From an uncultured archaeon (GTDB taxonomy: Archaea > Thermoproteota > EX4484-205 > JAAOZP01): a DNA stretch of 64,000 nucleotides. Position numbers and translations under genes: made by a program. The stretch spans positions 1 through 64,000 of the forward strand of contig CALIBN010000015.1 of the NCBI GenBank assembly GCA_938045545.1. The letters run 5' to 3'. This document shows positions 19,429 to 36,143 of this stretch, piece by piece (positions within the stretch are counted from its first letter, which is position 1; every line of letters begins with the position of its first letter). The notes under the pieces were generated by a model. That model saw only the letters and a list, made by a program, of their open reading frames with translations. It had not been told where the DNA came from and did not search any database.

Positions 19429-20508
19429 ATGGGGCCGCGGGAAAGGGTAAAAAATGTTCTTAAAGGAAGAATGCCCGACAGGATCCCTTGGATTATATAC
19501 TCAAGCCATCTTCCAAGGGGGAGCTTTGAGCGCAGGATGAGAGACATGGGGCTAGGGCTTGAGGAAAGGTGCAGCATATATAGGGCGTCGAACCCGAACG
19601 TCCGGATAGAGAGTAGAACAGTAGGCGACTACGTCTACACGACTTACCGTACTCCTGTTGGAGAGCTGAACTCTAAGACGCGGATTGGAATGAGGTTTCA
19701 GTTTCCAGGAGGCTCATGGACTGTTGAGCACCCGGTGAAAAACATGAACGACATCAAGGCTTTAATATTCATGATAGAGGATACTGTCTACGAACCCGAC
19801 TATGAAACATATGTCAGGATTAAAGAAGAGCTGGAGGAAGACGGTATTGTTACTGTTTGGGCTGACTACACGCCCCTTATGAAAACAATCGTCAGATACA
19901 TGGGTTTCAAAACCTTCGCGGTCATGTATCGGAGAAACAGGGAGATGATAGAGGAGCTGATTGAAACACTGGACAAGAGTTTTCTAAAAATGTATAGGAT
20001 AATAGCTGACTCGCCGGCCGAGATAGTCAGAGTGGGAGACAACATTGACTCAATGCTCATATCTCCAAGCCTCTTCCAGAAATACTGCCTCCCTTATTAT
20101 AATAAGTATGCAGATATTCTTCATGAAAAAGGAAAGACTGTTGTTTCACACATGGATGGCAGGCTTAAAGCGCTTAAAAACCTTATAGGTGAAACAAGGC
20201 TTGACGCTATAGAGGCTTTTACACCCCCACCTGGGGGAGACCTTTCGCCGAAGGAAGCCAGGGAAGCCTGGGGGAATAAAGTAGTTTGGATGAACTTTCC
20301 AGAGGAAGTGTTCCTCAGAACGCCTGAAGAGATAAGGAGTTTCACAATAAGGCTGCTCGAGGAAATAGCTCCAGGAGAAGGTTTTATCATAAGCGTTACG
20401 GAAGATGTTCACCCGGATCATTACAGGAAGGGTATTGAAACAGTGACTGAGACGCTATACAAATACGGCGGACTGCCTATAAATCCGCCATTAGCCTGTG
20501 ACCAGTAG
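19429..20508 (+). CDS. UroD/MtaA (methylcobamide methyltransferase-like) family protein
   Basis: PDRIPW, GDNIDS..ISP..FQKYCLPYY, SHMDG, EAFTPPP. Confidence 0.88.
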   Translation: MGPRERVKNVLKGRMPDRIPWIIYSSHLPRGSFERRMRDMGLGLEERCSIYRASNPNVRIESRTVGDYVYTTYRTPVGELNSKTRIGMRFQFPGGSWTVEHPVKNMNDIKALIFMIEDTVYEPDYETYVRIKEELEEDGIVTVWADYTPLMKTIVRYMGFKTFAVMYRRNREMIEELIETLDKSFLKMYRIIADSPAEIVRVGDNIDSMLISPSLFQKYCLPYYNKYADILHEKGKTVVSHMDGRLKALKNLIGETRLDAIEAFTPPPGGDLSPKEAREAWGNKVVWMNFPEEVFLRTPEEIRSFTIRLLEEIAPGEGFIISVTEDVHPDHYRKGIETVTETLYKYGGLPINPPLACDQ

Positions 20509-20670
20509 CTTAAAGCCGTGGAAAAACAGCTTGTCGAAGCCTTCTTTCAAAAGATTAAATTGAAGAATTGCCCGAGTTGAATATGGCTTCTCATTACGAC
20601 CAGGGAATTGCGTTAAGCCTGGTAACCAAAAAGTTAAAATATTTTCAGCATTCTCAAGCCTTGAGCAGAA

Positions 20671-21426
20671 ATGGGAATAGCGTTGCAGCTTTACTCGGTA
20701 CGCGAAGACTGCGCCAAGGATCTTGAGGGGACTCTTAAGGCGGTTGCTGAAATGGGTTACGAGGGCGTTGAGTTCGCAGGGTATTATGGGAGAAGTGCTG
20801 AAAACCTTAGGGCGATCCTTGACGACCTGGGTTTGAAGGTGGCTGGGACGCACATAAGTATAGATACTCTGCTCGGGGAAGAGCTTGGCAAGACTGTTGA
20901 GTTTAACCGTGTCCTGGAAAACAGGTTTCTAATAGTTCCAGGCCTGCCCGCTGAAATGCTGGGTTCAAAAGCCAATTGCTTGGAGGCGGCTAATCTGTTC
21001 AACGAAATTTCTGGAAAGCTTAGGAAAGAGGGTATGAGGGTCGGCTACCATAATCACATGTTAGAATTCAAAACCATTAACGGCGAGAGAATATGGGACT
21101 TGTTCTTCAGCTCCACGATCCCCGAGGTGGTGATGCAGCTGGACACTGGGAACGCGATGCATGGAGGAGTCGATGCTGAGGGCATTCTGGAGATAATCCG
21201 GAAATACCCTGGCAGAGCCGTAACCGTGCATGTGAAAGAGTATTCCTCTAAAGACCCTAAGGCAGTGATTGGGGAAGGGGAAATGAAGTGGCGCGAATTC
21301 TTCGAGCTCTGTAGAACAGTGGGTGGAACCGAGTGGTATATTGTTGAGCAGGAGAGCTATGCCTATTCTCCTCTCGAATGCGTTAAGCGTTGCATAGAAA
21401 ACCTTAAAAGAATGAGGCTTGTATAG
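20671..21426 (+). CDS. Sugar phosphate isomerase/epimerase (IolE/xylose isomerase-like TIM barrel)
   Basis: LQLYSVR, GYEGVEFAG, GYHNH, QLDTGN, HVKE, IVEQE. Confidence 0.92.
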   Translation: MGIALQLYSVREDCAKDLEGTLKAVAEMGYEGVEFAGYYGRSAENLRAILDDLGLKVAGTHISIDTLLGEELGKTVEFNRVLENRFLIVPGLPAEMLGSKANCLEAANLFNEISGKLRKEGMRVGYHNHMLEFKTINGERIWDLFFSSTIPEVVMQLDTGNAMHGGVDAEGILEIIRKYPGRAVTVHVKEYSSKDPKAVIGEGEMKWREFFELCRTVGGTEWYIVEQESYAYSPLECVKRCIENLKRMRLV

Positions 21427-21688
21427 CGGCCTATCCAAATCAATTTTTTAAAGGATTGCCACAAAGCCTAGATCTGTCCTATAAAGATTAAATTTAAGGC
21501 TTTACACATCAAAAATGTAACGCGTGCTAAAAGGCGAATACTAAAATTATCAAGTTGGGAATAGAAGTGGTAGAAACGACAGCTATTACTGAAGAAAAAT
21601 TCCAGTTGAAATAAGAATCTAGAAGGCTAAAGTTTAAAAAGACATATAAACTTTAAAATCTTAGAAAATTGGGAGGAGGAATGAGTAA

Positions 21689-22477
21689 ATGAAGATATTG
21701 TATGAATTTATTCCCAAAGCGAACTTTATAGATTTAGCAGAAGAAATAAAGGATCTAGTGGACGGTTTAAACATTACCGATAGCGCAGGAGGGATACCTG
21801 CTCCCAGTGCTACTGCAGTAGCCTGCGCGCTTAAGATAAAGTATCCTCAAAAAATAATGATTCCCATGCTGATTACTAATTATAAGGGACCAGTCGAAAT
21901 CGCTGCTGTAGCAAGTGCTTGCGAAGCCTTAGGGATTTATGGAATGGTACCTGATCCGGGAGACGCTCCCAGATACGGATATCCAATAAGGACAAGAAAA
22001 GACGGAACCTGTGAAATTCTTTCTGATAAAGAGGAGATTGAAAGATTTAGACGCGCAACCGGTCCTGCGGAAGAAGTTAGGGAATTTCTGCGTAATATCG
22101 TAAAGATAAAAAAGTTAAAATTAGGCTGTCTCTTAACTAGTCGTAGACCTACGGAAGAGGCTATTACACGCATAAGGGATGCTTGGGATTTCTGCCTTTT
22201 TTTGCGCTTAGAAAAGACCTCTTTGCCAAAGTTAAAAGAATTAGCTTCGGAGTGTAAAAATTTAGGAAAACCCATTTATCCGTATTTTGTAGTTGAGACG
22301 CCTAAAAATAAAAAGATTCTGGAAAGAATCGGATGGCCTTCTACAACGACCTTAGAAAAAGCAGAGGAATTCGCAGCCGAACTACAAGGTATTGTAGACG
22401 GCATAATCTCTACTTGCCTAGGAGATCTGGAGGCAGATAAAAAGCTACTTGATAAACTACAGAAATTCAGGGAATAG
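21689..22477 (+). CDS. Divergent methylenetetrahydrofolate reductase (MetF)-like FAD-binding barrel
   Basis: YEFIP, GLNITDSAGG and GDAP resemble MetF motifs; lies upstream of fhs. Confidence 0.55.
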   Translation: MKILYEFIPKANFIDLAEEIKDLVDGLNITDSAGGIPAPSATAVACALKIKYPQKIMIPMLITNYKGPVEIAAVASACEALGIYGMVPDPGDAPRYGYPIRTRKDGTCEILSDKEEIERFRRATGPAEEVREFLRNIVKIKKLKLGCLLTSRRPTEEAITRIRDAWDFCLFLRLEKTSLPKLKELASECKNLGKPIYPYFVVETPKNKKILERIGWPSTTTLEKAEEFAAELQGIVDGIISTCLGDLEADKKLLDKLQKFRE

Positions 22478-22763
22478 GACGGTAAAGAGATAAGAAAACT
22501 TATTTATTTGTGAAACGCGTGGTCCTTTGCTTAGGGAAAAGAGTTATGCTGAGAAGTGTGAAAACTGCGTCGGAGAGTAAAATTTAATTAAGCGGATGCT
22601 TCTACAGGCAGACGCTAGCGCACTGAGCCATGGAGAAGATGCTCTCATAAGCTATTTTAGGCACGCCCTGTGGATTGGAAGGGACTTTAGACATATAGAA
22701 GTCATTAAAAAGCTGATGGCATAAGTCGCCCCATGATTTCAGAAAGCCTTAAATGTTAGCTAT

Positions 22764-24530
22764 TTGCCATCATGGGAAAAGGAGGCGTTGATAATGCCGG
22801 TGAAAAAGAGCTGGCCAGTGCCTAGTGATATTGAGATCGCTTACAAAGCCGAGCTTTACCCGATTAAGAAGGTTGCAGAGCATATTGGGATTCTAGAGGA
22901 AGAGCTTGACAGTCACGGGAAATATATTGCTAAGGTTGATTACAAAAGCATTCTCAACAGGCTGAATAATAGGCCCCGCGGCAAATTGATTATCGTAACG
23001 GCAATCACCCCCACGCCCCTCGGCGAGGGGAAAACAACCGTTTCAATAGGCTTGGGCCAAGCCTTCCATGAAAGGGGTTTAAAGGTTATTAACACTCTGC
23101 GCGAACCCTCTAAGGGCGTTACCTTTGGAGTAAAAGGCGGTGCAACTGGCGGCGGCTACTCCCAAGTATTACCAATGGATAGGATTAATCTTAATTTCAC
23201 GGGAGACATATCGGCCGTGGAGATTGCCCATAACCTTTGTGCAGCAGCCATAGATGCTAGCATACTTCACGGAAATCCTTTAAGCATCGACCCCCTGTCA
23301 ATCGAATGGCCCTATTGCATGGATGTGGAGGCTAGGGCTCTAAGACGAGCCGTCATAGGATTAGGAGGAAGGTCAAACGGTTACCCTAGGGAGACGCGTT
23401 GGAGCATAACTGTGGCAACTGAAACGGCAGCCATCCATGCGTTGGCCACTGGGTTGGAAGACTTAAGGAAAAGGCTTGGAAAAGCCGTCGTCGCCTACAC
23501 CTATAGTGGGAAACCAGTAACGTGTGAAGAACTTGGAGTGGCCGGGGCCATGGCCGCTCTACTCGTGGAAGCCATTAAGCCTAATCTAGTTCAATCCACA
23601 GAAGGCCACGCCGTTTTAGTCCATGGATTTCCGTTTGCAAACATAGCGCACGGGACCAACTCGATCATAGCTGATTTAGTGGCTTTGAAGCTTGCGGATT
23701 ACGTTATCTGCGAAACCGGGTTTGGCTCTGAATGCGGCTTCTCCAAGTTCTGCGACATTGTATGCCGCCAGTCTCCCGAGATAAGGCCCGATTGCGCCGT
23801 TATCGTCTGCACGATTAGAGCACTTAAAGAACACGGCGGTGCCTTCCTGCTTCGCCCAGGAATGCCCTATAGGAAAGTCAAGAGGGCGGCTGAAACGGAA
23901 AATCTTCAAGCGGTCGAGAAAGGCTGCGAGAATCTGGCTAGACACATAGAAATAGTCCATAAATACGGTATTCCAGCCGTAGTTGCCATAAACAGGTTTA
24001 TCACGGATACCGATAGCGAGATAAGGCTGGTGTGTGAAAAAGCCATCGAGGCTGGCGCCGATGGTGTTGCCGTCGTAGATCCCTGGTCTAAAGGAGGCGA
24101 GGGTTGCCAGGAACTTGTTGATAAGGTTCTTGAAGCGATGAAGAAGCCGCGTGAGCTGAAGTTTCTTTATCCCGCTGAAGCCCCTATCAAGGAGAAAATC
24201 GAGACCATAGCTACTGAACTCTATGGGGCAGAAGACGTGAAATATTCGCCTGAAGCAGAGGAAAAAATAGAGTTTTACAACAGCCTTGGATACGACCGGT
24301 TTCCTGTAAACATGGCTAAAACACCCCTCTCCCTTTCTCACGACCCGCTCTGGAAAAACGTCCCTAAGAACTACACGTTTCCAGTCAACGACATACTCGC
24401 CTTCGTTGGAGCCGGTTTCCTTATCCCGATATGTGGCGAAATACAGTTGATGCCAGGCCTCCCGAGAAAACCCGCCTTCCTAAGGATCGATGTGGAAACG
24501 GAAACTGGAAGGATAAGAGGCCTCTTCTAG
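22764..24530 (+). CDS. fhs: Formate--tetrahydrofolate ligase (likely start ATG 22794 after GGAGG)
   Basis: TAITPTPLGEGKTT, GVKGGATGGGYSQV, PFANIAHG, MAKTPLSLS, MPGLP. Confidence 0.97.
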   Translation: MPSWEKEALIMPVKKSWPVPSDIEIAYKAELYPIKKVAEHIGILEEELDSHGKYIAKVDYKSILNRLNNRPRGKLIIVTAITPTPLGEGKTTVSIGLGQAFHERGLKVINTLREPSKGVTFGVKGGATGGGYSQVLPMDRINLNFTGDISAVEIAHNLCAAAIDASILHGNPLSIDPLSIEWPYCMDVEARALRRAVIGLGGRSNGYPRETRWSITVATETAAIHALATGLEDLRKRLGKAVVAYTYSGKPVTCEELGVAGAMAALLVEAIKPNLVQSTEGHAVLVHGFPFANIAHGTNSIIADLVALKLADYVICETGFGSECGFSKFCDIVCRQSPEIRPDCAVIVCTIRALKEHGGAFLLRPGMPYRKVKRAAETENLQAVEKGCENLARHIEIVHKYGIPAVVAINRFITDTDSEIRLVCEKAIEAGADGVAVVDPWSKGGEGCQELVDKVLEAMKKPRELKFLYPAEAPIKEKIETIATELYGAEDVKYSPEAEEKIEFYNSLGYDRFPVNMAKTPLSLSHDPLWKNVPKNYTFPVNDILAFVGAGFLIPICGEIQLMPGLPRKPAFLRIDVETETGRIRGLF

Positions 24531-24684
24531 AGTATCCGGCCACGATGTCCTTCAACTTTCCGAGCTGGCTATGATGAGGTGTTAAACGACCGTTAAGAGG
24601 GCTTCCCCAGCCCAACCATTATAATTAACGTTTAGCGAGGACTCTAAAAGTATAAAAAGGTGAATAGATGAAGAGGGTGAGAAA

Positions 24685-25593
24685 ATGTTCAGGTTTAAGC
24701 AGGAGCAGAAAATCTACGATATCGCTGGCGTGAAGGTTGGCGGTCAGCCGGGTCAACTACCTACTGTAATGATAGGAAGCATATTCTATGGCAAACAGAA
24801 AATATTTGAGGACGAGAGGACTGGAGCATTCTCTAAAGAAAAGGCTGAAGAGCTGTTGAATAAGGAGAAGGAAGTATCTGACAAAACCGGTAATCCTAGG
24901 ATTGTAGACGTATGCTGCACTTGGCCCCAAGCTTTTGGGAAACTCATAGAGTTCGTGGCCGACACGATCGACGGTCCCTTCGCTATAGATGGAACAACTG
25001 AGGAGGCGAGGATTGCAGGAGCCAAATACGTTGGTGAAGCCGGTTTATCTGAGCGCGTCGTCTACAACTCGATAATGCCGCATATTAAAGAGGCTGAGAT
25101 ATCTGCGATCAGGGAGGCGAGGATTAAATCCGCCGTCTTACTAACGTATAACGCTAAAAACCCCACGATAGCCGGGCGTATGCAGATGCTTGACGAGCTT
25201 TTAGCCTTAGCCTCAAAAGCAGGCGTCGAGAGAATCCTAGTTGATACGACTGTTCTCGACATCCCCGACCCAGGACCGGTAAGCAAAGTCGTCTACCTGG
25301 TGAAGGAGAAATACGGTCTACCGGCCGGGGCCGGAACGCATAACGCAGTCCAGAGGTGGAACAGGATGCGCAGACTAGATAGAACACTTTTCTCCATTGC
25401 GAGTAGCGTAGCCGACGTGGCTCCCATATTCATGGGGGCGAACTTCGTAATATATGGGCCGATAGAGAATGCTTCCAACGCGTATTTCCACTGTGCATTG
25501 GCCGACGCCTATGTGGCTTACAGCGTGCGGCAGGAGTTTGGAATAAGACCATTAACTAGCAACCATCCGCTGTTCAAAATATTCAAAGAGTAG
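24685..25593 (+). CDS. mtrH: Stand-alone MtrH-family pterin:corrinoid methyltransferase
   Basis: MFRFKQEQKIYDIAGVKVGGQPGQLPTVMIGSIFY, YNSI, LVDT, GTHNA, YGPIE. Confidence 0.93.
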   Translation: MFRFKQEQKIYDIAGVKVGGQPGQLPTVMIGSIFYGKQKIFEDERTGAFSKEKAEELLNKEKEVSDKTGNPRIVDVCCTWPQAFGKLIEFVADTIDGPFAIDGTTEEARIAGAKYVGEAGLSERVVYNSIMPHIKEAEISAIREARIKSAVLLTYNAKNPTIAGRMQMLDELLALASKAGVERILVDTTVLDIPDPGPVSKVVYLVKEKYGLPAGAGTHNAVQRWNRMRRLDRTLFSIASSVADVAPIFMGANFVIYGPIENASNAYFHCALADAYVAYSVRQEFGIRPLTSNHPLFKIFKE

Positions 25594-25605
25594 AGAACGC
25601 AGCAG

Positions 25606-25646
25606 AGGCAGATAGGATTAGCGTTTAACATTCGCTACTCCTGCCT
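25606..25646. terminator. Imperfect hairpin between convergent mtrH and purN
   Basis: AGGCAG/CTGCCT and TAGCG/CGCTA inverted repeats. Confidence 0.3.
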
Positions 25647-25715
25647 AAGTTTATGCGGTTTCCCCTCCGTGTCATCACCGAGACGTGATCGTAAAGTTGT
25701 CGGTTAGGAAAACTT

Positions 25716-26363
25716 TCAATCCCTGTGGTTCGAAAGGGGTTTCGTCTCCGCTTCGCGAAGTATCCTAGTCTTCCCCTGCTCAACTATGATTCTTCCCTCC
25801 TGGAAAAGACGGATCCCTTCCACCAAGACCTCACCCTCAGCCTCTTGAACCCTCCTCTTCAAAGACTCCTCATCGTCATCCTCCCTCACTTCAACAGCCT
25901 TCTGCAATATTATTGGTCCAGCATCCATTTTCTCATCAACGAAGTGGAGAGTACAGCCTGTAATCTTCACGCCGGATTCAAGCACCGCGCGATGGACGTT
26001 CAGGTCCCAACCTGGAAAGGCGGGTAGAAGAGAAGGATGAATGTTCATAATCCTATTCCTAAACTTTTTCACGAACTGGGGGCTTAAGAGCCTGTTATAG
26101 CCTATGAGCAGTACGAGGTCAACCTTCCTACGCTCAAGCTCTAGGGCGACCTCCATATCGTACTCCGCAGGATCCTTACCCTTAGGATCTATGAATATCG
26201 CTTCTATACCGTTCCGTCTCGCCCGCTCCAGCGCATACGCATTCTTCTTATTGCTTATGAGGCAGACTATTTCAGCGTTTAACCTCTTGTGTCTTATCGC
26301 CTCCAAGATGGCCTCCATATCGGTGGCGCGGGTTGATGCGAGTATGCCTATCCTAAGCAACAC
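25716..26363 (-). CDS. purN: Phosphoribosylglycinamide formyltransferase (likely GTG start overlapping the folD stop)
   Basis: LIGYNRLL, MNIHPSLLPAFPG, TGCTLHFVDEKMDAGPIILQ. Confidence 0.95.
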   Translation of the reverse strand: MLLRIGILASTRATDMEAILEAIRHKRLNAEIVCLISNKKNAYALERARRNGIEAIFIDPKGKDPAEYDMEVALELERRKVDLVLLIGYNRLLSPQFVKKFRNRIMNIHPSLLPAFPGWDLNVHRAVLESGVKITGCTLHFVDEKMDAGPIILQKAVEVREDDDEESLKRRVQEAEGEVLVEGIRLFQEGRIIVEQGKTRILREAETKPLSNHRD

Positions 26364-27196
26364 TACGAGGCCTCGGAGGCGCATTCAACCAGATTCCGTA
26401 TGATGGTCGCGACCGTCACCGGGCCCACTCCACCTGGAACCGGTGTTATCGCAGACACTTTTTGGGAAACGCTTTGAAAATCCACATCCCCCACGAGAGT
26501 GCCTTCGACGAAGCTGGTTCCAGCATCGATCACTACAGAACCCTCACCGACCATTTTGTCGGTTATGAGCCTCGGGACACCGGTTGCAGAGATTAATACA
26601 TCCGCTTTCAATGTCTTCTCGCTCAGGTTTTTAGTCTTGATGTGGCAAACGGTTACTGTTGCCATTCGTGAGGTAAGCATTGCAAAAAGGGGCCTTCCTA
26701 CGAGTATGCTGTTGTTCACGATGACGACGTCGGCACCTTCTACGTTAATTCCATACCATTCCAAAATCCTGATCACAGCGTTTGCCGTCGCCGTGGGCTT
26801 GGCTTCCAAGCCGGATAACAATCTTCCCAGGTTTAATGGATGCAGGCCGTCAACATCCTTCTTAATGTCTAAGGCTTCCAATACGTTTAGCGTCGACACG
26901 TTTTTCGGAAGGGGTAGTTGAACAACTATCCCATGAACACCCGTATCCTTATTCAATTCCTTTATGAGCGAGATGAGCTCGGCTTCAGATGGATCGTTAA
27001 GCTCATGCACCACCGCTTTCCCCCCTACAGAGTTGCAGGCTTTAACCTTCATTTTAACGAAAGAATCCTGTGCCTTTGAACCCGAGGCCTTTATGATGTG
27101 CAGCGATGGCGTGAAGCCCAGTTTCTCGATCCTCGCCTTAGCCTCAGCTAGAATCGCGTCGGCCACGGGCTTTCCGCTCAATATCTTAGCCGCCAT
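26363..27196 (-). CDS. folD: Bifunctional methylene-THF dehydrogenase/cyclohydrolase
   Basis: HGIVVQLPLP, KDVDGLHP, VGRP, TPVPGGVGPVT. Confidence 0.96.
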   Translation of the reverse strand: MAAKILSGKPVADAILAEAKARIEKLGFTPSLHIIKASGSKAQDSFVKMKVKACNSVGGKAVVHELNDPSEAELISLIKELNKDTGVHGIVVQLPLPKNVSTLNVLEALDIKKDVDGLHPLNLGRLLSGLEAKPTATANAVIRILEWYGINVEGADVVIVNNSILVGRPLFAMLTSRMATVTVCHIKTKNLSEKTLKADVLISATGVPRLITDKMVGEGSVVIDAGTSFVEGTLVGDVDFQSVSQKVSAITPVPGGVGPVTVATIIRNLVECASEAS

Positions 27197-27410
27197 CAGG
27201 AATCACCGCAGCCCCTGTAAATCGCGACCCTCGATGCTGATGAATGCCACTTGCCACTAGGAGAGATGTGTCTACGAGTCATACTGGGGCTTACTTTCCA
27301 ACAGTTGGAGTGATGCCCACTCCTAGTGTCAGCCTCATCAACCTTCACCAGTTCTCTAAACCAGTGAGACATCGTGTCCTTCTTCAAACACATGCGTCCT
27401 TATAAATGCT
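27197..27410 (-). promoter_or_regulatory. Promoter (TTTATAAG, ~27399-27406) and ~180-nt structured leader of folD-purN
   Basis: TATA box, nested inverted repeats 27236-27342, GGTGA SD just upstream of the folD ATG. Confidence 0.5.
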
Positions 27411-27526
27411 TCGATTACATTGCTCCATCAGTCAAAATTTTATAAACTATTAGTCCCGGCGATGAGTTTTAAAATATGAATTTCTAGTATTCATGAAACG
27501 TTTTTATAGGGAACTCTTTTCACAAT

Positions 27527-28882
27527 TTGAGAATGGGCGAGGAATCCGGCAACGCTAAGAATGAATTCAGGAAATTAGCAAGAGAGAGGATTCTAGCGAT
27601 GTCGGAACAGCAGAGGAAGAATAAGAGCTTGAAGGCAGTTTCCAACCTTAAAAGTCTAGATGAGTTTTCGAGAGCAAAATGTGTCATGGTGTATGTTTCA
27701 AAGAAGGATGAAGTCGATACGATCGGGCTCATTACTGACATGTTGAAATCCGGTAAAAGAGTTGCAGTACCCTTCGTAGATGAGGAAAGAATGGAGCTGA
27801 TTCCCTGTGAAATATCAAACCTCGAAGAACTAGCTGTTGGAACATTCGGTGTGATGGAGCCGGATCCCGGGAATTTGAGAATCGTTAACACTGAGGAAAT
27901 AGACGTCGTTGTCGTCCCAGGTATGGCTTTCGACAGAAATTGCAACAGGCTTGGCAGAGGGAAAGGTTACTTCGACAGGTTTTTAAAGAGACTTAACGGA
28001 GGGAAGAAAGTAATCGGTTTAGCCTTCTCAGAACAGGTTTTTGACAGCATACCGGTTGAAGAGAACGATGCGAAGGTCGACATCGTGGTTACGGAATCCA
28101 GCATCATAAGGTGCGACGCTGGAGGGCCAAGATCTGGTTTAAGCAGGAAAAAATTCGACGTGCATAAACTTGCCACCTCTTCCCTGTTCATGGCACTCTT
28201 CATCGTGCTTAGGGCAGTCCCAACCTTCCCAATCATAGGGGTACCTGGAGGAAGCTTCCCGGTTTCAGATGTCATTCTGCCGCTTTACGGAGTCTTGCTC
28301 GAGCCTGTTCACGGCGCCACCGTAATCCTCTTAGGAACAATCCTAGGTTTCTTAATAAAGCCTCCCAGGTTTCTTTACCTGGACTTCCTACCGCCGCTGG
28401 TTAACACTTTGACAGTAAGTCTGCTCTGGAGGAGGAAGACGTGGTTAGCACTCCTCATCTATGTTTCCGTATTAGCCGTTTTCATGACAGGGCCTTTTAG
28501 CCTGATACTTATACACCTCGACCTTCCAGGCTTAGAGGCAGATTTGCCATTCCACTGGCTGCACCTCACAGCAATACCCGTCTCCCTGATTCTCATCAGG
28601 CTTGGAAATTTTAAACATAAGGCTGATCCAATTGCATTGAAGTTTTCAGGATGCGCTTTACTCGGAACCATGGGGCAACACTCTATGGGTAGTGCACTAT
28701 TTGGATACGTGTTCGGTCTAACCGGGATGATAAATAGAGAGGGGTTTGAGAAAATCTGGTATACGGTATTCTGGATATATCCTATAGAGAGGATGCTTCT
28801 AGTCTTGGTGAGCACGCTGGTTGGAGTCCCGGCCATCCGAGTATTGACAAGGATAATATGGAGGCCTCAGAACCCATCGTAA
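27527..28882 (+). CDS. 5-formyltetrahydrofolate cyclo-ligase fused to a ~6-TM ECF S-component-like domain
   Basis: N-half: EVDT, GTFGVMEP, VVVPGMAFD..RLGRGKGYFDR. C-half: PTFPIIGVPGGSFP..LYGVLL.P and HSMGS..YPIER pattern with about six TM helices. One continuous ORF. Confidence 0.88.
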   Translation: MRMGEESGNAKNEFRKLARERILAMSEQQRKNKSLKAVSNLKSLDEFSRAKCVMVYVSKKDEVDTIGLITDMLKSGKRVAVPFVDEERMELIPCEISNLEELAVGTFGVMEPDPGNLRIVNTEEIDVVVVPGMAFDRNCNRLGRGKGYFDRFLKRLNGGKKVIGLAFSEQVFDSIPVEENDAKVDIVVTESSIIRCDAGGPRSGLSRKKFDVHKLATSSLFMALFIVLRAVPTFPIIGVPGGSFPVSDVILPLYGVLLEPVHGATVILLGTILGFLIKPPRFLYLDFLPPLVNTLTVSLLWRRKTWLALLIYVSVLAVFMTGPFSLILIHLDLPGLEADLPFHWLHLTAIPVSLILIRLGNFKHKADPIALKFSGCALLGTMGQHSMGSALFGYVFGLTGMINREGFEKIWYTVFWIYPIERMLLVLVSTLVGVPAIRVLTRIIWRPQNPS

Positions 28883-30195
28883 GGCTCGCCCGTCCATATC
28901 GGCCTTGCCTCCCCAACGGTGAAAACTGAGCCCGTAACAAGTATTCTACCCTCTTCCCCGGTGCACGACAAGGCTCGAGCCACCGCCTCCTTAACAGTCG
29001 GCTCAGAACTGTATTTAGCATTCAGATCCTTCAAAACATCCGCCATCCTCTCTATCGGGAGAGCTCTCCCCATGACGCCGTGCTCAGTTAAGATGAACTC
29101 ATCCGTGATCCTCGCAACAGATCGGAGAATCTTATCGTATTCCTTATCCGAGGAAATACTGACGACTGTTTTAAACCTGGCTCCCGGCAGCATTTCCTCT
29201 ATGCTCGACGACAACGCTTCAGCAGCCGCCGGATCCTTTGCGCAATCCAATATGACTAGTGGTCTTTGACTAACGGGCTCCAGCCTCCCCGGCCACACAA
29301 TGTTAGCAAGACCCCTTCTTATGGCATCCTCATTAAAGTCCGATTTACCAGTTAGCTCGGAAAACCTTAGATAGCTCGCTATGGCCGTCGATACGTTCGT
29401 CGCCTGAAAACTCCCCCTGAGCGAAACCTTAAGGTTCTTCAAAAGCGTCTCCCCAAGGTCAACATCTAAAAGCATCCCGGTTAAGTCTGATCTTAAAACT
29501 CTGTGCTTAACATCCCTGGATACCAAGGTGAGCTCGGAGCCCAATTCCATGCAGCGTTCCTCTATGACTTTAAGCGCTGAACCCGAGCAAGCCGTTACGG
29601 TGGGCCGCCCCGGCCTTATTATGCCTGCTTTCTCAAAAGCTATCTTCTCAACAGTATCACCCAAGTGCTTCATATGCTCTAAAGAGACGTTTGTTATGAC
29701 TGAGAGCATCGGGTCGCATGCGTTTGTCGCGTCCAGTCTACCTCCCATACCCACCTCAACGACAGCCACGTCAACGTTTTTCACCGAGAAATACTCATAT
29801 GCCATTGAGACGTTGCACTCGAAAAAGGTTGGAAAGCGTCCTAACCTTCTCGAAACCTTTTCACCAGCCTCTTTAACCACCTCATAGGTCTCCACGACTT
29901 CCCTCCTGGTTATTTCACAGCCATCCACGGCTATCCTCTCGGTGAACCTGCATAGGTGCGGCTTCGTGAACATTCCAACCTTAAGACCCTCCTCGCGTAG
30001 GATTGAGCTTATCATGGTGACAGTGGAACCCTTCCCATTAGTACCCCCTACGAGGATCACAGGATAGTCCTGCTCCGGGTTTCCAAGCTCGTTCAGAACC
30101 CCCTTGACAACATCCAAGCCTAGCTTTATCCCCCTCAGCTCGTAGAGCTCCTTTAACACCCGCACGTACTCAGCGTCATCAGTCCAAGCACTCAA
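28867..30195 (-). CDS. folC: Folylpolyglutamate synthase/dihydrofolate synthase
   Basis: VGGTNGKGST, TFFE, EVGMGGRLDATN, EKAGII, WPGRLE, TGSVFTVGE. Confidence 0.96.
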   Translation of the reverse strand: MSAWTDDAEYVRVLKELYELRGIKLGLDVVKGVLNELGNPEQDYPVILVGGTNGKGSTVTMISSILREEGLKVGMFTKPHLCRFTERIAVDGCEITRREVVETYEVVKEAGEKVSRRLGRFPTFFECNVSMAYEYFSVKNVDVAVVEVGMGGRLDATNACDPMLSVITNVSLEHMKHLGDTVEKIAFEKAGIIRPGRPTVTACSGSALKVIEERCMELGSELTLVSRDVKHRVLRSDLTGMLLDVDLGETLLKNLKVSLRGSFQATNVSTAIASYLRFSELTGKSDFNEDAIRRGLANIVWPGRLEPVSQRPLVILDCAKDPAAAEALSSSIEEMLPGARFKTVVSISSDKEYDKILRSVARITDEFILTEHGVMGRALPIERMADVLKDLNAKYSSEPTVKEAVARALSCTGEEGRILVTGSVFTVGEARPIWTGEPYDGF

Positions 30196-30430
30196 TTATT
30201 GAAGCACCCCTTTAGCGTGCGCTGAGGAAACCGCGTCCTCTCCATCATTTCTTAACGGTGGAAATCGTCTTGTTTAAATGTCTTACTGAGACGGATTGAA
30301 GCTCGGGAGCATGCGGGTTTACATCGTTTCCCGCTCATCGGAGACGACTATACCATGATAAGCCTGAATCGAAAGCTCCAATAGCTCGTCTACCCCAGGA
30401 GATATGCGGCCGGCTTCCTGAGCAGGAAGG

Positions 30431-30528
30431 GTCATTGAAGCAAGGTTCTAGAGGAATAACCTGGGGGTTCAGGTGTGTACGGGCTTGCCATAAAACGTCA
30501 TTGAAGCAAGGTTCTAGAGGAATAACCT
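30431..30528. repeat. Two exact direct repeats GTCATTGAAGCAAGGTTCTAGAGGAATAAC(CT), 30-32 bp, separated by a 34-36-bp unique spacer; CRISPR-like mini-unit
   Basis: Copies start at 30431 and 30497 (66-bp period); internal AGGTT/AACCT palindrome. Confidence 0.8.
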
Positions 30529-31089
30529 TCCCATTCCTTTGTCGCAGGCAAATGGAAAAGGGGAAAGGCCTCACCAGCCATTCGTCGAGTGAAGGAGAAG
30601 CATCAGGGAAAAGCTCAAGTGCACGCGCTAAACCATGAGAAGCAATTTTCCCAAAATAAGGCTCTAAGTTAACGATTAAGTTTCAACCCATAATCCGGCA
30701 GAATGTCATCCGCCTTCCGTATGGCGTGAAAACGATATCCTGTGAGACTAGTAAAAACTCCTAGAACACCGATGATCATAAGCATTAATGATATACCTAC
30801 ATCCGGTTGCGCGCTACGGTGTAAAAATGGCTACAGCAGCTTCAGCAGCGCGCGCCATGCTTGTGTCGAGAAGCGAGAATGCCCAGCCTATCCATATTAG
30901 AGTAAACCCGAGCACGCCTGTAAAACGTCCTTTAGTATGCTGAATTCTCATTATGCTGTAGATTCTTCACATTACACGCGCTTTACGTTTTTATAATTTA
31001 TCCTTTGCAATTTTTCTTACCCTGTTATAAGCCTGATTCTTAATATTCGTTGTAAAAGCTTAATAGCAGGATTAGGAATTAGTTTCTTC

Positions 31090-31947
31090 ATGGAGTATAG
31101 ACGCTTAGGTAGAACAGGTTTCAAAGCAAGCATTCTAACCATAGGAGGCTGCGGCCCAGGAATAGCTCCGAACATGGAGGACGGTTTTAAGGCTTTTGAA
31201 AAAGCGGTTGAAAAAGGCATTAACATGGTTGACGTGGCGCCCAGCTATGGAGAGGCTGAAACTAGGCTTGGGCAATTAATAAGGAGGAACCGTGACAAGT
31301 TGATAGTAACCGAGAAAACTCTTGAGAGAACCAGGGAGGGCGCTTGGAGAGAGCTCCGGCAAACCCTGTCCCGTTTCCAAGTTGAAAACATAGACGTGTA
31401 CCAGTTTCACGCAGTGAGCACGCTGGAGGAGCTTGAAAAGATTTTCAGCGAAGACGGTGCTGTGAAAGCGTTTCTGGAGGCTCGTGAACAGGGATTGATA
31501 AGACACATAGGGATAACAGCCCATTCGGACATGAGGATAGTTGTTAAAGCCCTTGAGAAATTCGACTTCGACACAGTGCTGATACCCGTGAACGTTGGAA
31601 GCCTTATTGCACCTGCGCCCGAGAACGATTTCAACCCGGTTCTGAAAATCGCGAGAGACAGGGATATTGGAGTCATCGCAATAAAGGCGATTTCAAAAGG
31701 CAGGTGGACGGGGGAGAGGAAATACCAGACTTGGTATGAGCCGATGGATGGTCAGGAGGATATTGACAAGGCAGTGTGGTTCACCCTTTCCCAAGAGCCG
31801 GTTGCAACCTACTCCATGGCGTGCGACATAAGGCTTTGGTCAAAGATAATAAGTGCGGGCGAAAGGTTTAGAAAGCTCGCTTCAGAGGAGCAGGAGGCGG
31901 TTGTAAAATATTTTAAGACTAAAGGGGTGAAGCCTCTTTTCCCATAG
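31090..31947 (+). CDS. Aldo/keto reductase
   Basis: YRRLGRTG, DVAPSYG, DVYQFH, IGITAH. Confidence 0.93.
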   Translation: MEYRRLGRTGFKASILTIGGCGPGIAPNMEDGFKAFEKAVEKGINMVDVAPSYGEAETRLGQLIRRNRDKLIVTEKTLERTREGAWRELRQTLSRFQVENIDVYQFHAVSTLEELEKIFSEDGAVKAFLEAREQGLIRHIGITAHSDMRIVVKALEKFDFDTVLIPVNVGSLIAPAPENDFNPVLKIARDRDIGVIAIKAISKGRWTGERKYQTWYEPMDGQEDIDKAVWFTLSQEPVATYSMACDIRLWSKIISAGERFRKLASEEQEAVVKYFKTKGVKPLFP

Positions 31948-32005
31948 TGTTTCACAACAGTCCTGGCCCGTTACTTCTCCAAGTTTAAAGGGAAACGTGC
32001 CCCAT

Positions 32006-32908
32006 TTATAGGCATGAAGCTATTTTGCTTAAAGAGGCTTCAGCATCTTTTAAGCCCAATTCAAAAACTATTGGGCCGGTGAACACCGTCTCTTTCAAAA
32101 CTTTGAAAAAACTTTCAATGTTAAGGTCTCCAGCCCCCAAGGGTAAATGATCCCTGACAACCAGCCTACCTTCCTCGACTCGCCTGTAGGCGTCGTGAAG
32201 ATGTATTTCTCCAAGTCTCCCCGAACATTTTTTAAGAGCATCGTCAACGCTTACATCCCCGGAGTACCCGGCGAGAATATGGCCTGTGTCTATGCAGATC
32301 GACGTGTCGAACCTCTCAGCGATTTCAAGAGTTTTCGAAAAAGGGAACTCTATAGACTCCAAAGCTATTCTACGCGAGTCCACGCCAGCATTAGCCATGT
32401 ATGAGACTATCTGCTCAACGCTCCTTAAAGCATTATTGGCAAGAAACTCGAAGAAAAGCATCTTATATTCTTGTTTAACCCCCATCCTGTTGACCTCCGA
32501 AGCCAAGGGGCCTGCTACGTGAAGAACATACGCGAGTGGTTTAAGAACCTCCAGGATCTCAACAGGCTTAACGACCGCGTTGACCGAAGCCACCCGAATA
32601 TCCTCTACGGGGGAATCCAGCTCGATAGACCAGATGGGCAAGTGCGCAGAGAAAGTAATACCCATGTCCCTCATGAGCATCCATTCCTCCAGGTTTTTCC
32701 TTGAGAAGGAGGCTGGAAGAATATAGTAGAGATCCGTGTTAAGCTCTACGTGATTAAAACCTTTTTCAACAATCTTCCTAACTAGCTTAGGGTAGTCAAG
32801 AAATATTGCACTATTCTCCAGCTCTAAGGCTTCCAACACTTCGTCGAGCGAGAGGGCTGTAGCGCCAAGCCTTAAGCCAGCCTGATTCCCCATGATATCG
32901 CACTGCAT
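32006..32908 (-). CDS. AP endonuclease 2/xylose isomerase-like TIM barrel (possibly CbiR-like cobamide phosphodiesterase)
   Basis: SAHLP, YVLH, IALES, CIDTGH, IHLHD, DHLPLG, IVFE metal ligands. Confidence 0.8.
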   Translation of the reverse strand: MQCDIMGNQAGLRLGATALSLDEVLEALELENSAIFLDYPKLVRKIVEKGFNHVELNTDLYYILPASFSRKNLEEWMLMRDMGITFSAHLPIWSIELDSPVEDIRVASVNAVVKPVEILEVLKPLAYVLHVAGPLASEVNRMGVKQEYKMLFFEFLANNALRSVEQIVSYMANAGVDSRRIALESIEFPFSKTLEIAERFDTSICIDTGHILAGYSGDVSVDDALKKCSGRLGEIHLHDAYRRVEEGRLVVRDHLPLGAGDLNIESFFKVLKETVFTGPIVFELGLKDAEASLSKIASCL

Positions 32909-32929
32909 GACACGGGACAGTTATAAGAC

Positions 32930-33226
32930 TTATATGATGGCCTCAGGCATTAAAACCACTCTGCTGGCCTCGTTTAAAAAAGTTGAATGAGCCTTATCCA
33001 CCGGGACCACTCTTCCATTCAAGACTATCGTAAAGTCCTCTGAAAGGCTTTCTGTTCCAGCTGCGAAAACCCTTTCCTTAAACTTCATCCCATATTTATC
33101 AGCCATCTTCTTAACCAGATCGTAGACAGTACTCCCCTCCTCCATATCCACCAGCGTCTCCGTAGACCCGACGATATCTCTAAACTGGCCTACTAGCTCC
33201 ACGCGGATTTTCATATTCACTAACAT
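32930..33226 (-). CDS. MoaD/ThiS-family beta-grasp protein lacking the C-terminal GG
   Basis: IRVELVGQFRDIVG, STVYDL, IVLNGR; ends VLMPEAII. Confidence 0.8.
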   Translation of the reverse strand: MLVNMKIRVELVGQFRDIVGSTETLVDMEEGSTVYDLVKKMADKYGMKFKERVFAAGTESLSEDFTIVLNGRVVPVDKAHSTFLNEASRVVLMPEAII

Positions 33227-33266
33227 AAGCGGATAGCTTTAAAATAAATATTTCGTTCAAAGAAGT

Positions 33267-33963
33267 CTATAGTAGACCGACTAAGTCTGTTAGACTCGAT
33301 ATTTTTGGACACTGTTTGCCTCCGTACATCCCTCTCCTGTCGATTAGAATAGCGTTCATGCCGGCGGCACGCACACCCAGATAGTCTTCTTCATACCTGT
33401 CACCAATGTGCAGCATGTTCTCCATAGGAGTATTGGAAAGTCGGGAGGCAATACGGAATATTTCAGCATTAGGCTTCTCGTACCCTAAATCGCCCGAAGC
33501 CACGAGCATTCCGAAATATTCTAGAAGGCCGGCTTTCCTCAAGTATGTTGCCAGGTTCCTGCTGGAGGAGACATTGGAAACAGCGATCAGCTTGAGATCA
33601 TTATCCCTAAGTTTCCTTAAAGTGGGCTCAGCATCCTCATAGGCCCGGAAATCTGCTTCGGATAGCCAGCGGTGCGCAGCTGTTCAGCCAGATCTTGGTT
33701 CGGGATGGCGAGGTTCGAAACCATTTTCCGGAGCAGCCTAGCCCAGGCATTTTCGTTCCAAACTTCCCGGGTCCTTGCTTTCTCCTCACTCCACCATACG
33801 CACGCATCCTTCCAGGCCTCCCTAACTTTAACGGGCTCAAACCGATATCCCAACTTAAGCAGGATCTTATGGAAGACCATATGATCCTCTTCAACTTCAT
33901 AGTATAGCGTTCCGCCGCAGTTGAAGGAGACAGTTTTAATGCGTTTTTTAAACAATAGCACAT
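33267..33963 (-). pseudogene. HAD-IA family hydrolase; frameshifted
   Basis: SFNCGGTLY (motif I degenerate) and EKPNAEIF..HIGD..EDY..AAGM in separate frames; junction ~33650. Confidence 0.85.
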
Positions 33964-33976
33964 CCCGCTTAATAAT

Positions 33977-34414
33977 TCAACTTTTTTCCTTCCACCAGTA
34001 GAATAGTTTTCTACTCAACTCGTGTATCTTCCTAGCATTATCTATTGCTTTTTCAGCATCCTCTTTAGAATAGAGCTCCCTGGGAGGAGTGAAGGCGCTC
34101 TCATCGCCGTAAAAAGCCGGACCTCTTTCTCCAGCAAGCCTTTTACTCACAATACTGATCGTTTCCAGCTCAAATCTAAACCAATCCGGAAGCTCTCTAA
34201 CACGTGCTATTTCAACCAAAACATCGCTGACATCGTGTTGACGCGGATACTCCATGCCCAGCAGTCTGAGAACAGCCTTTAGGCTTAATTCAACACTTTC
34301 TTGCGCTCTTCTAATCGTTCTATGGTACATCTCTTTGGTGAAGGCTTCTTCAGCCTCGTAGAGAGAATACTCAGCGTCGTCAAGATACCCTTTAGCCATA
34401 GCCTCAGTATTCAA
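33977..34414 (-). CDS. HEPN domain protein (HEPN-MNT toxin)
   Basis: AQESVELSLKA, PRQHDV, RGPAFYG. Confidence 0.92.
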   Translation of the reverse strand: MNTEAMAKGYLDDAEYSLYEAEEAFTKEMYHRTIRRAQESVELSLKAVLRLLGMEYPRQHDVSDVLVEIARVRELPDWFRFELETISIVSKRLAGERGPAFYGDESAFTPPRELYSKEDAEKAIDNARKIHELSRKLFYWWKEKS

Positions 34415-34950
34415 ATTTCAACCGCCTCTCCACGTTTTATATCGGGTTTTAAATCCCAGAGCCATGTCCCGTTTTTGAGATAAACGCGTTTAGCTTTCAA
34501 CTCATCCAGCCTTTTCCTAAGGCTCGTGAAAACAGACTCTAAAAAGCTGTCCTTGTCGACCAGGATAACAGCGTCCTCAACCATGTCCAAGTATATTGGC
34601 CTATGGATTTTCGCCTCCTCCGGAGTAAGAGGATAAAATTGTACCCACGTGTTAACGCCTTTCTTTCTAAGCTCCCTGTACGTTTGAGTATCTCTCAGCT
34701 TAATTAGGATTTTAGCCATGATCTCCATTTTCTCACTAATCCTTTTAGGAAGATTTTCAGCGACGACGAGAATATCCGTATCGCTAGACGGCTTAGCATC
34801 CCCTCTGGCTACAGAGCCGAAAACAACTACACTTATCAGTTTTTCTCCGAAAAAGCCGTTAAGGAGATTAAGAACCTCTTTAACAAACTCCCTCCTATCC
34901 GAATCAATTATATTGGATAATCCGTGTCTAAACATCGTTAACCCTTGCAT
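34411..34950 (-). CDS. Minimal nucleotidyltransferase (MNT antitoxin)
   Basis: VVFGSVARG..SSDTDILVV; 4-nt overlap with the HEPN gene. Confidence 0.93.
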   Translation of the reverse strand: MQGLTMFRHGLSNIIDSDRREFVKEVLNLLNGFFGEKLISVVVFGSVARGDAKPSSDTDILVVAENLPKRISEKMEIMAKILIKLRDTQTYRELRKKGVNTWVQFYPLTPEEAKIHRPIYLDMVEDAVILVDKDSFLESVFTSLRKRLDELKAKRVYLKNGTWLWDLKPDIKRGEAVEI

Positions 34951-35099
34951 TCTGAAAATATTTAAGCCGTTATACCTTATATACTTTTAGCAGTAAGAGA
35001 AAAAGCAGCTTCAGCGCAAGATAGAATAGGCCGACGTAATAACGATTATGAAAGAAACATGCAGCAAAGTTAATATTATTCGGAAAAAACTCCCGCAAC

Positions 35100-35501
35100 A
35101 TGAGCTATGAAATAATAGAGGTTTCGACGAAAACTAGGCAACAGCTCGTAGAAGTAACCTCGGCGATAAGGGAGCGAGTTAAAAGAAGCGGTGTGAAAAA
35201 AGGCCTCTGCTTCATCCATGTCCCCCATACAACCGCCGGAATAACTTTAAACGAGAATGCTGACCCTAGTGTAGCCAGAGACATCCTCAACACTTTAAAC
35301 CGTTTAATACCTGTTGAGGGCGATTACACCCATTTAGAGGGCAATGCGCACGCCCATGTGAAAGCAAGCATTGTCGGACACAACGCGATCCTGTTCATAG
35401 AGGATGGCGAACTCATGCTGGGAACTTGGCAGGGAATTTTCCTATGCGAGTTCGACGGGCCTAGGAGGCGGAGGATTCTAATAAAGATAGTTGGAGAATA
35501 A
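35100..35501 (+). CDS. yjbQ: YjbQ/UPF0047 family protein
   Basis: [37 protein letters not shown]. Confidence 0.95.
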
Positions 35502-35609
35502 AAGTATGTGCGCTAAGCTCAGGCCATTTAAATCGCGCACCAGCATGCGACAAGCCTAATGGAAATCTTATCAGCAAGGCTTAAATAATTTTATCGCCCA
35601 ATTATTATT

Positions 35610-36143
35610 GTGAAAAAGAAAATCGTGATTAAAGGCGACAGGGTTCAGGATGTAGGTTATAGGCTCTTTCTTCTAGATGCTGCCGAAGACTCGGGTTTAA
35701 AGGGTTTTCAAGCTAGGAATGTCAAGGATTACGTTGAATTCATGGTGGAAGGTGATGACGACAGGGTGATTGAATTCGTTAAATTCGCAGAAAGCAATTA
35801 CCCTGAGTTCGCCAAGGTGGATGAAGTGCGGGTGGAGGATTACGGCGGGGAAGTTATGTCTATGGACAGGTTTTACCACAGGTTCAGCGTTGACCAGCTG
35901 GCTAAAATAGTGAGCGTGGGAATTGGCATGATTGGAAGACAGGATACAATGATAGAGAAGCAGGATTTGATGCTAGGAAAAATGGATCTAATGTTGGAGA
36001 AACAGGATGAAATGTTAAGAAAACAGGATGAAACAATAATGGAGATAAGAGCATTAAGAGAAGACTTGAGAAACTACATGGAGGAAAGGTTTGAAAAAAT
36101 AGAAAGAGAGATAGCGGCGATAAAGGCTAAGATAGGTCTTTAA
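35610..36143 (+). CDS. Acylphosphatase-domain protein with heptad-repeat coiled-coil tail
   Basis: GDRVQDVGYR..GFQARN; (K/R)QDxM(L/I) heptads. Confidence 0.88.
   Translation: MKKKIVIKGDRVQDVGYRLFLLDAAEDSGLKGFQARNVKDYVEFMVEGDDDRVIEFVKFAESNYPEFAKVDEVRVEDYGGEVMSMDRFYHRFSVDQLAKIVSVGIGMIGRQDTMIEKQDLMLGKMDLMLEKQDEMLRKQDETIMEIRALREDLRNYMEERFEKIEREIAAIKAKIGL

Follow-up and report, generated by a model that had tools for sequence, protein, structure and literature searches.

A 5-formyltetrahydrofolate cyclo-ligase fused to an S-component-fold membrane domain in a Brockarchaeota-type archaeon: a candidate for folate salvage

In JCVI-syn3A, which has no dihydrofolate reductase (DHFR), the 5-formyl derivative of tetrahydrofolate (5-formyl-THF) is assumed to be taken up through an S-component encoded next to folC, and then to be handled by 5-formyl-THF cyclo-ligase (5-FCL, also named MTHFS) and by FolD (PMC6609329, partial text). 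Folinic acid is known to bypass DHFR yet to require 5-FCL (PMC13408713, partial text), and for the Brockarchaeota it has been proposed that methylotrophy and the reductive glycine pathway are both based on tetrahydrofolate (THF) (PMC8065059, partial text). Here we describe a gene from a hot-spring archaeon of Brockarchaeota type that joins two of these functions, or relatives of them, in one polypeptide. The stretch analysed, referred to as the window, has 64,000 nucleotides and corresponds to positions 1 to 64,000 of contig CALIBN010000015.1 of the GenBank assembly GCA_938045545.1. The gene, listed in the window as an open reading frame (ORF) at 27527..28882 on the plus strand with 451 aa counted from a TTG at 27527, encodes a 5-FCL in its N-terminal half and a membrane domain with the fold of the S-components that belong to transporters of the energy-coupling factor (ECF) type in its C-terminal half. 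On balance we favour the reading that the protein serves the ECF-dependent salvage of a reduced folate, which would be passed to the tethered ligase.

The fusion is real and conserved, and it is not an artefact of assembly. A protein cluster search identified 20 fused clusters of 398-453 aa (the identical P0001 and 19 others at 55-96% identity), with 55-100% identity overall and at least 88% query coverage. In their precomputed annotation PF01812 is present in 20 of the 20 and PF12822 in 18, so that the combination of cyclo-ligase and membrane domain described in an earlier note on this DNA, made from the sequence alone, recurs well beyond the window; the source records call these clusters '5-formyltetrahydrofolate cyclo-ligase' and nothing more. 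Within the genus, a single open frame of 454-503 aa with matches to PF01812 and to the membrane family is found in 11 of 17 genomes (the present one, G000, included). In a twelfth genome (G087) the gene is interrupted by two contig ends only, and the remaining five, which are 70-91% complete, gave no strong match. Contigs from three studies cross the junction between the domains: single contigs in runs X1 (from which this DNA may itself have come), X2 and X5 cover the whole stretch, and run X3 has a pair of short contigs that cross the domain junction. Among the covering contigs the sole indel adds 3 bp at 27451, upstream of the gene start, and the single fused ORF reported in the earlier note therefore stands. 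The order purN-folD / fusion / folC is also kept in all 10 fused loci that are long enough, down to 52-64% domain identity. A mis-assembly, a lost stop codon or a frameshift could in principle have united two neighbouring genes, and solo forms of both halves do exist in relatives, namely a canonical MTHFS of 188 aa that is convergent with purH in family f4 (genome G185) and the membrane proteins P0021, P0022 and P0044. Set against the divergence of the 20 fused clusters, the intact frames across the genus and the indel-free junction in contigs from three studies, such an origin is extremely improbable.

The stand-alone membrane proteins are informative about the history of the fusion. P0021 has 10 members, all of 255 aa, on contigs of up to 215 kb, and P0044, with 246 aa and two members, is nested within a fused subclade. 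The read-through tail of P0022 resembles the antisense strand of the folC gene in the window (58% over 40 aa, E 3e-10), which suggests that P0022 shares the convergent folC neighbour; relatives of P0022 were sought in metagenomes for their gene context, and none were found. As these stand-alone forms lie within the fused clade, the fusion is derived and not obligatory. The question of whether the orthologues are two separate genes, which the earlier note had raised, thus has a divided answer: the fused frame prevails in the genus, and stand-alone orthologues of the membrane part occur in the same clade. Other fusions of PF01812 were also found (clusters P0023-P0043), with PF02677, which we take to be the QueH/DUF208 family, as partner in 15, PF02517 in three, and PF20362, PF01464 and PF01687 in a single cluster each.

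Judged by profile, the N-terminal half is a complete 5-FCL, as had been claimed from the sequence, and a canonical one. The equivalog model TIGR02727 (MTHFS) is matched over its entire length (model positions 1-182 of 182) with 163.9 bits against a cut-off of 84.9. The closest solved relative is the MTHFS of Aquifex (1sou, E 3.4e-36, residues 11-197), human MTHFS is matched as well (3hxt, E 2.7e-27), and in the AlphaFold2 (AF2) model of the whole protein the ligase half has a predicted local distance difference test score (pLDDT) of about 80-93. The linker that follows shows low conservation and a 3-residue indel in an 18-row alignment of the whole protein (alignment A1), and has a pLDDT below 50 in the same model. 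A second PF01812 gene is present in the genome (contig C6:20354-20935, locus L054), with 89.5 bits to the Pfam model and only 29.7 bits to TIGR02727, and a non-canonical second gene of this kind occurs in all four families of the order (18 of its 26 genomes). A table of PMC5041015 (partial text) ties a 5-FCL paralogue to thiamin metabolism, for which the L054-type gene is a candidate. On these scores the fused ligase is the sole canonical 5-FCL of the genome, and it must therefore also do housekeeping recycling.

The C-terminal half belongs to a family of membrane proteins. Residues 205-451 matched 128 proteins at E <= 1e-3 among 1.84 billion representatives, nearly all of them stand-alone and about 220-290 aa long. 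The matches spanning most of the query were aligned together with P0021 and P0022 (alignment A2, 79 sequences), and column counts in this alignment identify W344, H346, H385, G388, W411, Y418, P419, E421 and R422 as near-invariant. With A2 as input, AF2 modelled the membrane domain with a pLDDT of 94.9 and a predicted template modelling score of 0.91, as seven helices and a beta-hairpin in about 240 residues. In a comparison with 48,161 chains using VIA-align, the 15 best matches are all S-components, spanning model residues 1-244 at Z 12.1-8.2: the best is FolT 5d0y (Z 12.1, root-mean-square deviation 3.1, 152 residues aligned), BioY 4dve (12.1), RibU 5kbw (12.0) and FolT 4z7f (11.5) follow, and PanT, ThiT, the truncated transition-metal transporter 4m5c, CbiM and BtuM 8ovv (8.2) score lower, although the tool warns that a Z below about 13 may be generic for helical bundles, a caveat that counts against our reading. 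The first match outside the S-components is MreD, at Z 6.6, and all those below it are under 6. Because the 15 top matches are exclusively S-components and cover the whole domain, we regard the S-component fold as established for the predicted structure; Foldseek likewise gave probabilities of 0.9-0.99 for S-components. The ~6-transmembrane, S-component-like domain of the earlier note is thus borne out in its fold and corrected in its topology, since seven helices and a hairpin are predicted in ~240 aa and not in ~180.

By sequence, FolT is the closest curated family, and the domain stays outside formal FolT membership. PF12822 reached 32.8 bits in a six-frame search of the genome, above its cut-off of 30.7. 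At E <= 0.01, PF07155 is matched by 42 and PF12822 by 41 of the 79 members of A2, and among NCBIfam models TIGR04518 (FolT) is matched by 28 (best E 3.5e-10), RibU by four and ThiW by two. The A2 profile searched against the sequences of the Protein Data Bank (PDB) found RibU 3p5n (E 1e-6) and FolT 4z7f (E 1e-4), in both cases over the first ~150 positions only. The comparison with FolT that had been suggested for this domain consequently upholds the S-component fold, with 5d0y at the top, and not the family assignment, since the FolT model remains below its cut-off and the predicted ~240 aa, seven helices and hairpin exceed the 155-200 aa and six helices of FolT. An S-component fold need not mean transport: it is found too in 5TMR-LYT sensor kinases and in MreD (PMC11109136, partial text), MreD is itself among the structural matches, and weak PF07694 matches are seen in four of the 79 members, all of which would suit a domain that merely anchors the ligase to the membrane or regulates as a sensor. 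We consider such a role quite improbable, as the positions in helix 1 that are bulky in sensors and MreD, according to the same survey, have stayed small here, an output domain is missing from most family members, which consist of ~240 aa and stand alone, and the best structural matches are all transport S-components.

Analysis of the gene context links the family to pterin and folate cofactors. Family matches at E <= 1e-5 were found in 160 of 401 Thermoproteota genomes, the Atlas clusters of the family come mostly from Bathyarchaeota and Methanobacteriota, and the automatic names are 'hypothetical protein', 'uncharacterized membrane protein' and 'ECF-type riboflavin transporter S component domain-containing protein'. 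As the context set we took the 30 loci with the highest scores in the 401 genomes, two of them fused and 28 stand-alone. Among the stand-alone loci, 19 have the family member tail-to-tail with a gene of 427-490 aa resembling dihydropteroate synthase (DHPS) (PF00809 Pterin_bind and PF14251 PterinBD-DUF4346); the one scanned, in L019, matched TIGR00284 ('dihydropteroate synthase-like protein') with 377.8 bits. Six others lie beside a CofE-type gamma-glutamyl ligase, and a CofE paralogue is listed as acting in tetrahydrofolate synthesis in a table of PMC5041015 (partial text). Overall, genes for pterin or folate cofactors adjoin 25 of these 28 top-scoring stand-alone members. The sister family f3 has a member of 235 aa that is located directly upstream of SHMT and is divergent from GcvT and a CofE-like gene. 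In two loci (L030 and L039, from two genomes) a pair of S-type genes stands in tandem: the family member and a CofE-like gene have a QueT-family S-component gene directly upstream.

A quick IQ-TREE phylogeny with SH-aLRT supports separates the family into two subfamilies. The first (support 99) unites the f3 genes with the members found beside CofE-type genes. The second contains the DHPS-adjacent members and, inside it, a clade of all 16 fused and three stand-alone sequences (support 100). As the f3 gene falls in the first subfamily, it is a paralogue and not an orthologue of the fused domain. The clade that includes the domain of the window is the only one in which members are fused to the ligase, nearly all members of the family being stand-alone.

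The archaeon itself appears unable to make its own folate, as far as its gene content can tell. None of the 26 genomes of the order yielded a match to PF00809, the dihydropteroate synthase family, and TIGR00284 exceeded its cut-off in 0 of the 26 while the control in Sulfolobus was matched. In three genomes of one genus of the order (G055, G039 and G111), frames of ~500 aa match only the last ~100 positions of TIGR00284, with 57-66 bits, and these partial matches fall in the DUF4346 / MtrA-like part. HPPK and DHFR were searched in the present genome, which is 92% complete, and were not found. FolC is present in 13 of the 16 other genomes of the genus. For thymidylate synthesis, a ThyA-like match of 55.4 bits was identified (contig C34:9364-9783, locus L059), and ThyX and DHFR_1 had no match in this genome; the idea of an organism with ThyX and no DHFR, needing only reduced folates, was accordingly rejected. 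Taken together, the gene context and the missing synthesis genes are the reason why folate salvage fits this organism.

The identity of the ligand is where the strongest competing explanation arises. The same architecture could bind another compound (folate, dihydrofolate, pteroate, a methanopterin-like pterin or a breakdown product), with the ligase fused just for co-expression or to recycle 5-formyl-THF made by SHMT. This would agree with the pairing of 19 of the 28 stand-alone relatives with a DHPS-like gene in presumed pterin makers, with the nesting of the fused clade among DHPS-adjacent members in the quick tree, and with a fused ligase that is the only canonical 5-FCL of its genome. The pocket-type residues H346, H385, E421 and R422, kept in 57-78 of the 79 members, suggest one class of ligand and point the same way. 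A precursor acting upstream of DHPS would nevertheless be useless in an order in which DHPS was not detected, and the fusion has stayed beside folD and folC through at least three deep subclades, an arrangement that is simplest if the cargo is the substrate of the ligase. We therefore judge a different ligand unlikely, though deserving of serious attention.

An energizing module for the putative transporter is encoded elsewhere in the genome. The earlier note had stated that the window, on contig C15, is devoid of genes for the ECF A and T components, and this is correct: the only EcfT gene is on contig C11, in an operon of ecfA (ABC_tran, 286 aa), ecfA' (ABC_tran, 274 aa) and ecfT (CbiQ/EcfT, 243 aa). 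The operon is surrounded by exosome, prefoldin and ribosomal-protein genes and has no adjoining S gene. At separate sites the genome carries a further three S genes (a ThiW beside thiD/thiN, a RibU-like one and a generic one), a layout that corresponds, from the genes present, to a group II system with its shared module. In the genus, 13 of 13 genomes have EcfT. Across genomes G000-G150, EcfT accompanies a family match at E 1e-5 in 66 of 68 cases and occurs in 38 of the 83 genomes that lack such a match; the relatedness of the genomes makes these counts non-independent, and other S-components may have passed the 1e-5 threshold.

The membrane domain also carries a plausible docking site for this module. 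The AxxxA motif of helix 1 serves docking on EcfT (PMC11109136, section 10, partial text). The corresponding columns are occupied by small residues (A/S/G/C/T) in 69 and 70 of the 79 members, with the consensus A..FAA, and helix 1 of the window's protein reads S219-L-F-M-A223 (SxxxA), a variant of the motif with Ser for the first Ala. Co-folding of the S-domain (A2) with EcfT (A3, a 30-row alignment) gave a score of 0.60 against 0.04 for the best of three controls, with contact agreement of at least 80% between runs and a partner pLDDT of at least 76. The mark passed here is reached by 116 of 157 solved complexes and by two of 215 mismatched pairs, and scores of 0.60 or lower comprise just 18 of the 157 solved complexes plus both of the passing mismatches; similar ECF complexes have been solved, and the pass, which may reflect memory of them, lends weak support to our reading, a weakness that counts among the points against it. 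Any transport by the fusion is likely to depend on ECF, judging from these features.

The earlier note had also considered that the ligand might be trapped without an ECF motor, with uptake driven by the ATP-dependent conversion in the tethered ligase. There are some grounds for it besides the window without ECF genes, as two genomes have a family match and no EcfT match, the structural matches include BtuM (8ovv), with Z 8.2, and, speculatively, an N-terminal domain of 200 residues might hinder docking. BtuM acts without an ECF module. We find this mechanism improbable, and it is not needed, because a shared EcfA-EcfA'-EcfT module is encoded in the genome; the motif of small residues in helix 1, the distribution of EcfT and, weakly, the co-folding result speak against it in the same sense.

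In the proposal that we favour, in which the ligand, the direction of transport, the dependence on ECF and the hand-over to the ligase are the inferred parts, the S-domain, as a divergent and enlarged ECF S-component, would capture an extracellular reduced folate, most likely 5-formyl-THF. It would then topple onto the single shared EcfA-EcfA'-EcfT module of the genome, encoded on the other contig, and free the ligand into the cytoplasm. There the ligase, connected through some 20 basic residues to the point where helix 1 begins on the cytoplasmic side, would use ATP to convert 5-formyl-THF into 5,10-methenyl-THF. The divergently encoded FolD would interconvert 5,10-methenyl-THF, and the convergently encoded FolC would polyglutamylate the product, with its retention in the cell as a consequence.

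A number of observations weigh against this proposal. Regarding the fold, the AF2 run on the whole protein with the 18 sequences of A1 put the membrane part at a pLDDT below 50, no PDB entry was matched by Foldseek at E <= 0.001, FolT, BioY, RibU, PanT and ThiT are tied at Z 10-12, so that structure does not discriminate among them, and the domain is 60-90 residues larger than solved S-components, the hairpin and the extra helix included. Outside the six-frame search PF12822 remained under its cut-off of 30.7 (28.4 bits with the whole protein, 30.1 with the domain alone), and TIGR04518 gave 25.5 bits with the whole protein and 26.5 with the domain against a cut-off of 60. Regarding the family, P0021, P0022 and P0044 stand alone inside the fused clade, three of the 28 stand-alone loci have unrelated neighbours, one distant member (31% identity) follows LarC, and many genomes carry 2-6 paralogues. 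The DHPS-like partner is biosynthetic, so that the ligand of the family could be a precursor or an archaeal pterin. Regarding the physiology, the fused ligase may simply recycle 5-formyl-THF made inside the cell, the ThyA-like gene without a DHFR leaves the folate cycle not fully accounted for, and the two genomes that lack an EcfT match in spite of a family match are G046, which is 99% complete, and G137.

A broader and rather doubtful extension can also be offered. The family of ~240 aa may be an uptake system for C1-carrier pterins, folates as well as methanopterin-type compounds, in Thermoproteota and other archaea. The fusion in the Brockarchaeota would then be a case of vectorial salvage, in which release from the transporter is coupled to ATP-dependent conversion in the manner of group translocation, and which might run without the ECF motor.

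The features of the locus are given in Table 1. The ATG at 27533 is a likelier start codon than the TTG at 27527, because it is preceded at a distance of 25 nt by the TATA-like TTTTTATA (27501-27508) and because the identical database cluster P0001 likewise has 449 aa. This reading uses the geometry of archaeal promoters. We infer that TTTTTATA is a promoter element of the fusion gene, and its spacing indicates that the mRNA is probably leaderless. An Rfam scan of 20000-36000 found no family at the gathering score, hence no THF riboswitch. As the earlier note had described, the fusion is divergent from folD, across a spacer of 330 bp, and meets folC tail-to-tail, with an overlap of 16 bp at the 3' end of the fusion. 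FolD is the user of the product of the ligase, and its gene is syntenic in the 10 related loci that reach that far (L006-L011 and L013-L016); the convergent arrangement of the fusion with folC recurs in L006-L017, the 12 related loci long enough to include the region. The MtrH-family gene between fhs and purN-folD matched the MtgA model with 264.8 bits, under its cut-off of 550; MtgA is the corrinoid:tetrahydrofolate methyltransferase (model name in NCBIfam), and the gene is a candidate for such a step. Upstream of folC there is an exact direct repeat of 32 nt in non-coding sequence (30431-30462 and 30497-30528, with a spacer of 34 nt). Its dimensions are CRISPR-like, yet it has two copies only, and no extra copy was found when at most 3 mismatches were allowed in the window and at most 4 in the genome as a whole.

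Table 1. Coordinates of the fusion gene, its domains and the neighbouring genes in the window.
Feature	Position	Strand	Remarks
Fusion gene	27533..28882	+	449 aa with ATG 27533 as start, 451 aa with TTG 27527; stop codon included
5-formyl-THF cyclo-ligase (MTHFS / 5-FCL) domain	27557..28096	+	residues 11-190; PF01812 148 bits, profile positions 1-186 of 186
Linker	28097..28159	+	residues 191-211; Arg/Lys-rich beside helix 1; sequence and length variable
S-component-fold membrane domain	28160..28858	+	residues 212-444; seven predicted helices, beta-hairpin at residues 328-341; helix 1 S219xxxA223
folD/fusion divergent intergenic region	27197..27532	.	AT-rich, GC 0.39-0.40; TATA-like TTTTTATA at 27501-27508
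folD (methylene-THF dehydrogenase / methenyl-THF cyclohydrolase)	26363..27196	-	PF02882 and PF00763; divergent, 330-bp spacer
folC (folylpolyglutamate / dihydrofolate synthase family)	28867..30195	-	TIGR01499 325.1 bits, cut-off 162.65
purN (GAR formyltransferase)	25716..26384	-	PF00551 174.8 bits; downstream of folD; syntenic
fhs (formate-THF ligase)	22764..24530	+	PF01268 756.9 bits
MtrH-family methyltransferase	24685..25593	+	PF02007 287.2 bits; NF002142 303.3 bits, cut-off 287

The acquisition of the cofactor is central to the metabolic model of the Brockarchaeota, because their proposed pathways are THF-based, yet DHPS was not detected in the 26 genomes of the order. The source of folate consequently matters for culturing these archaea, and folinic acid would be a reasoned supplement. 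The available parts of the main text of the Brockarchaeota paper (PMC8065059) make no mention of ECF, cyclo-ligase or MtrH. The fusion acts as a natural 'Rosetta stone' in that it links an unannotated and widespread archaeal membrane family to folate or pterin metabolism, and it yields a testable candidate for archaeal folate or pterin uptake. In the full-text literature searched there was no S-component fused to an enzyme consuming its presumed ligand, a point on which earlier work on folT / 5-FCL or on archaeal S-components may touch, and the main text of the survey of the S-component fold (PMC11109136), in its available parts, does not mention 'cyclo-ligase' or enzymes. What appears to be new here is that an S-component of an unnamed archaeal family is joined in one protein with the enzyme for salvage of the ligand it is presumed to bind.

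In a comparison with known systems, the ligase is alike to MTHFS (YgfA; 1sou and 3hxt), with a full-length equivalog match and a query motif GRGKGYFDR that pairs with GFGKGYYDR of 1sou, and it differs from these enzymes by the membrane domain at its C-terminus. That domain is in turn a member of the unnamed archaeal S-component-like family of ~240 aa, from which it is set apart by its fusion to the ligase. With FolT (5d0y, 4z7f, 4huq_S and 9kym_D) it shares the fold, at Z 12.1 and 11.5, and FolT is its best-matching curated sequence family, though under the cut-off. Like folT, it is encoded next to folC (as reported in PMC6609329, partial text, citing Eudes 2008), and, as in group II systems, the genome has a shared EcfAA'T module at another site. 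The identity to the solved FolT chains is only 12-13%, and these have 155-199 aa against the ~240 aa of the window's domain with its beta-hairpin and seventh helix. Unlike FolT, the domain is archaeal and fused to an enzyme, it scores 25.5-26.5 bits against the 60 demanded by TIGR04518, and its ligand is a prediction. The FolT-FolC-YgfA route of JCVI-syn3A follows the same logic as the one proposed here; in that organism it consists of three separate proteins, whereas in this archaeon the transporter-like part, which is of another family, and the ligase form one polypeptide.

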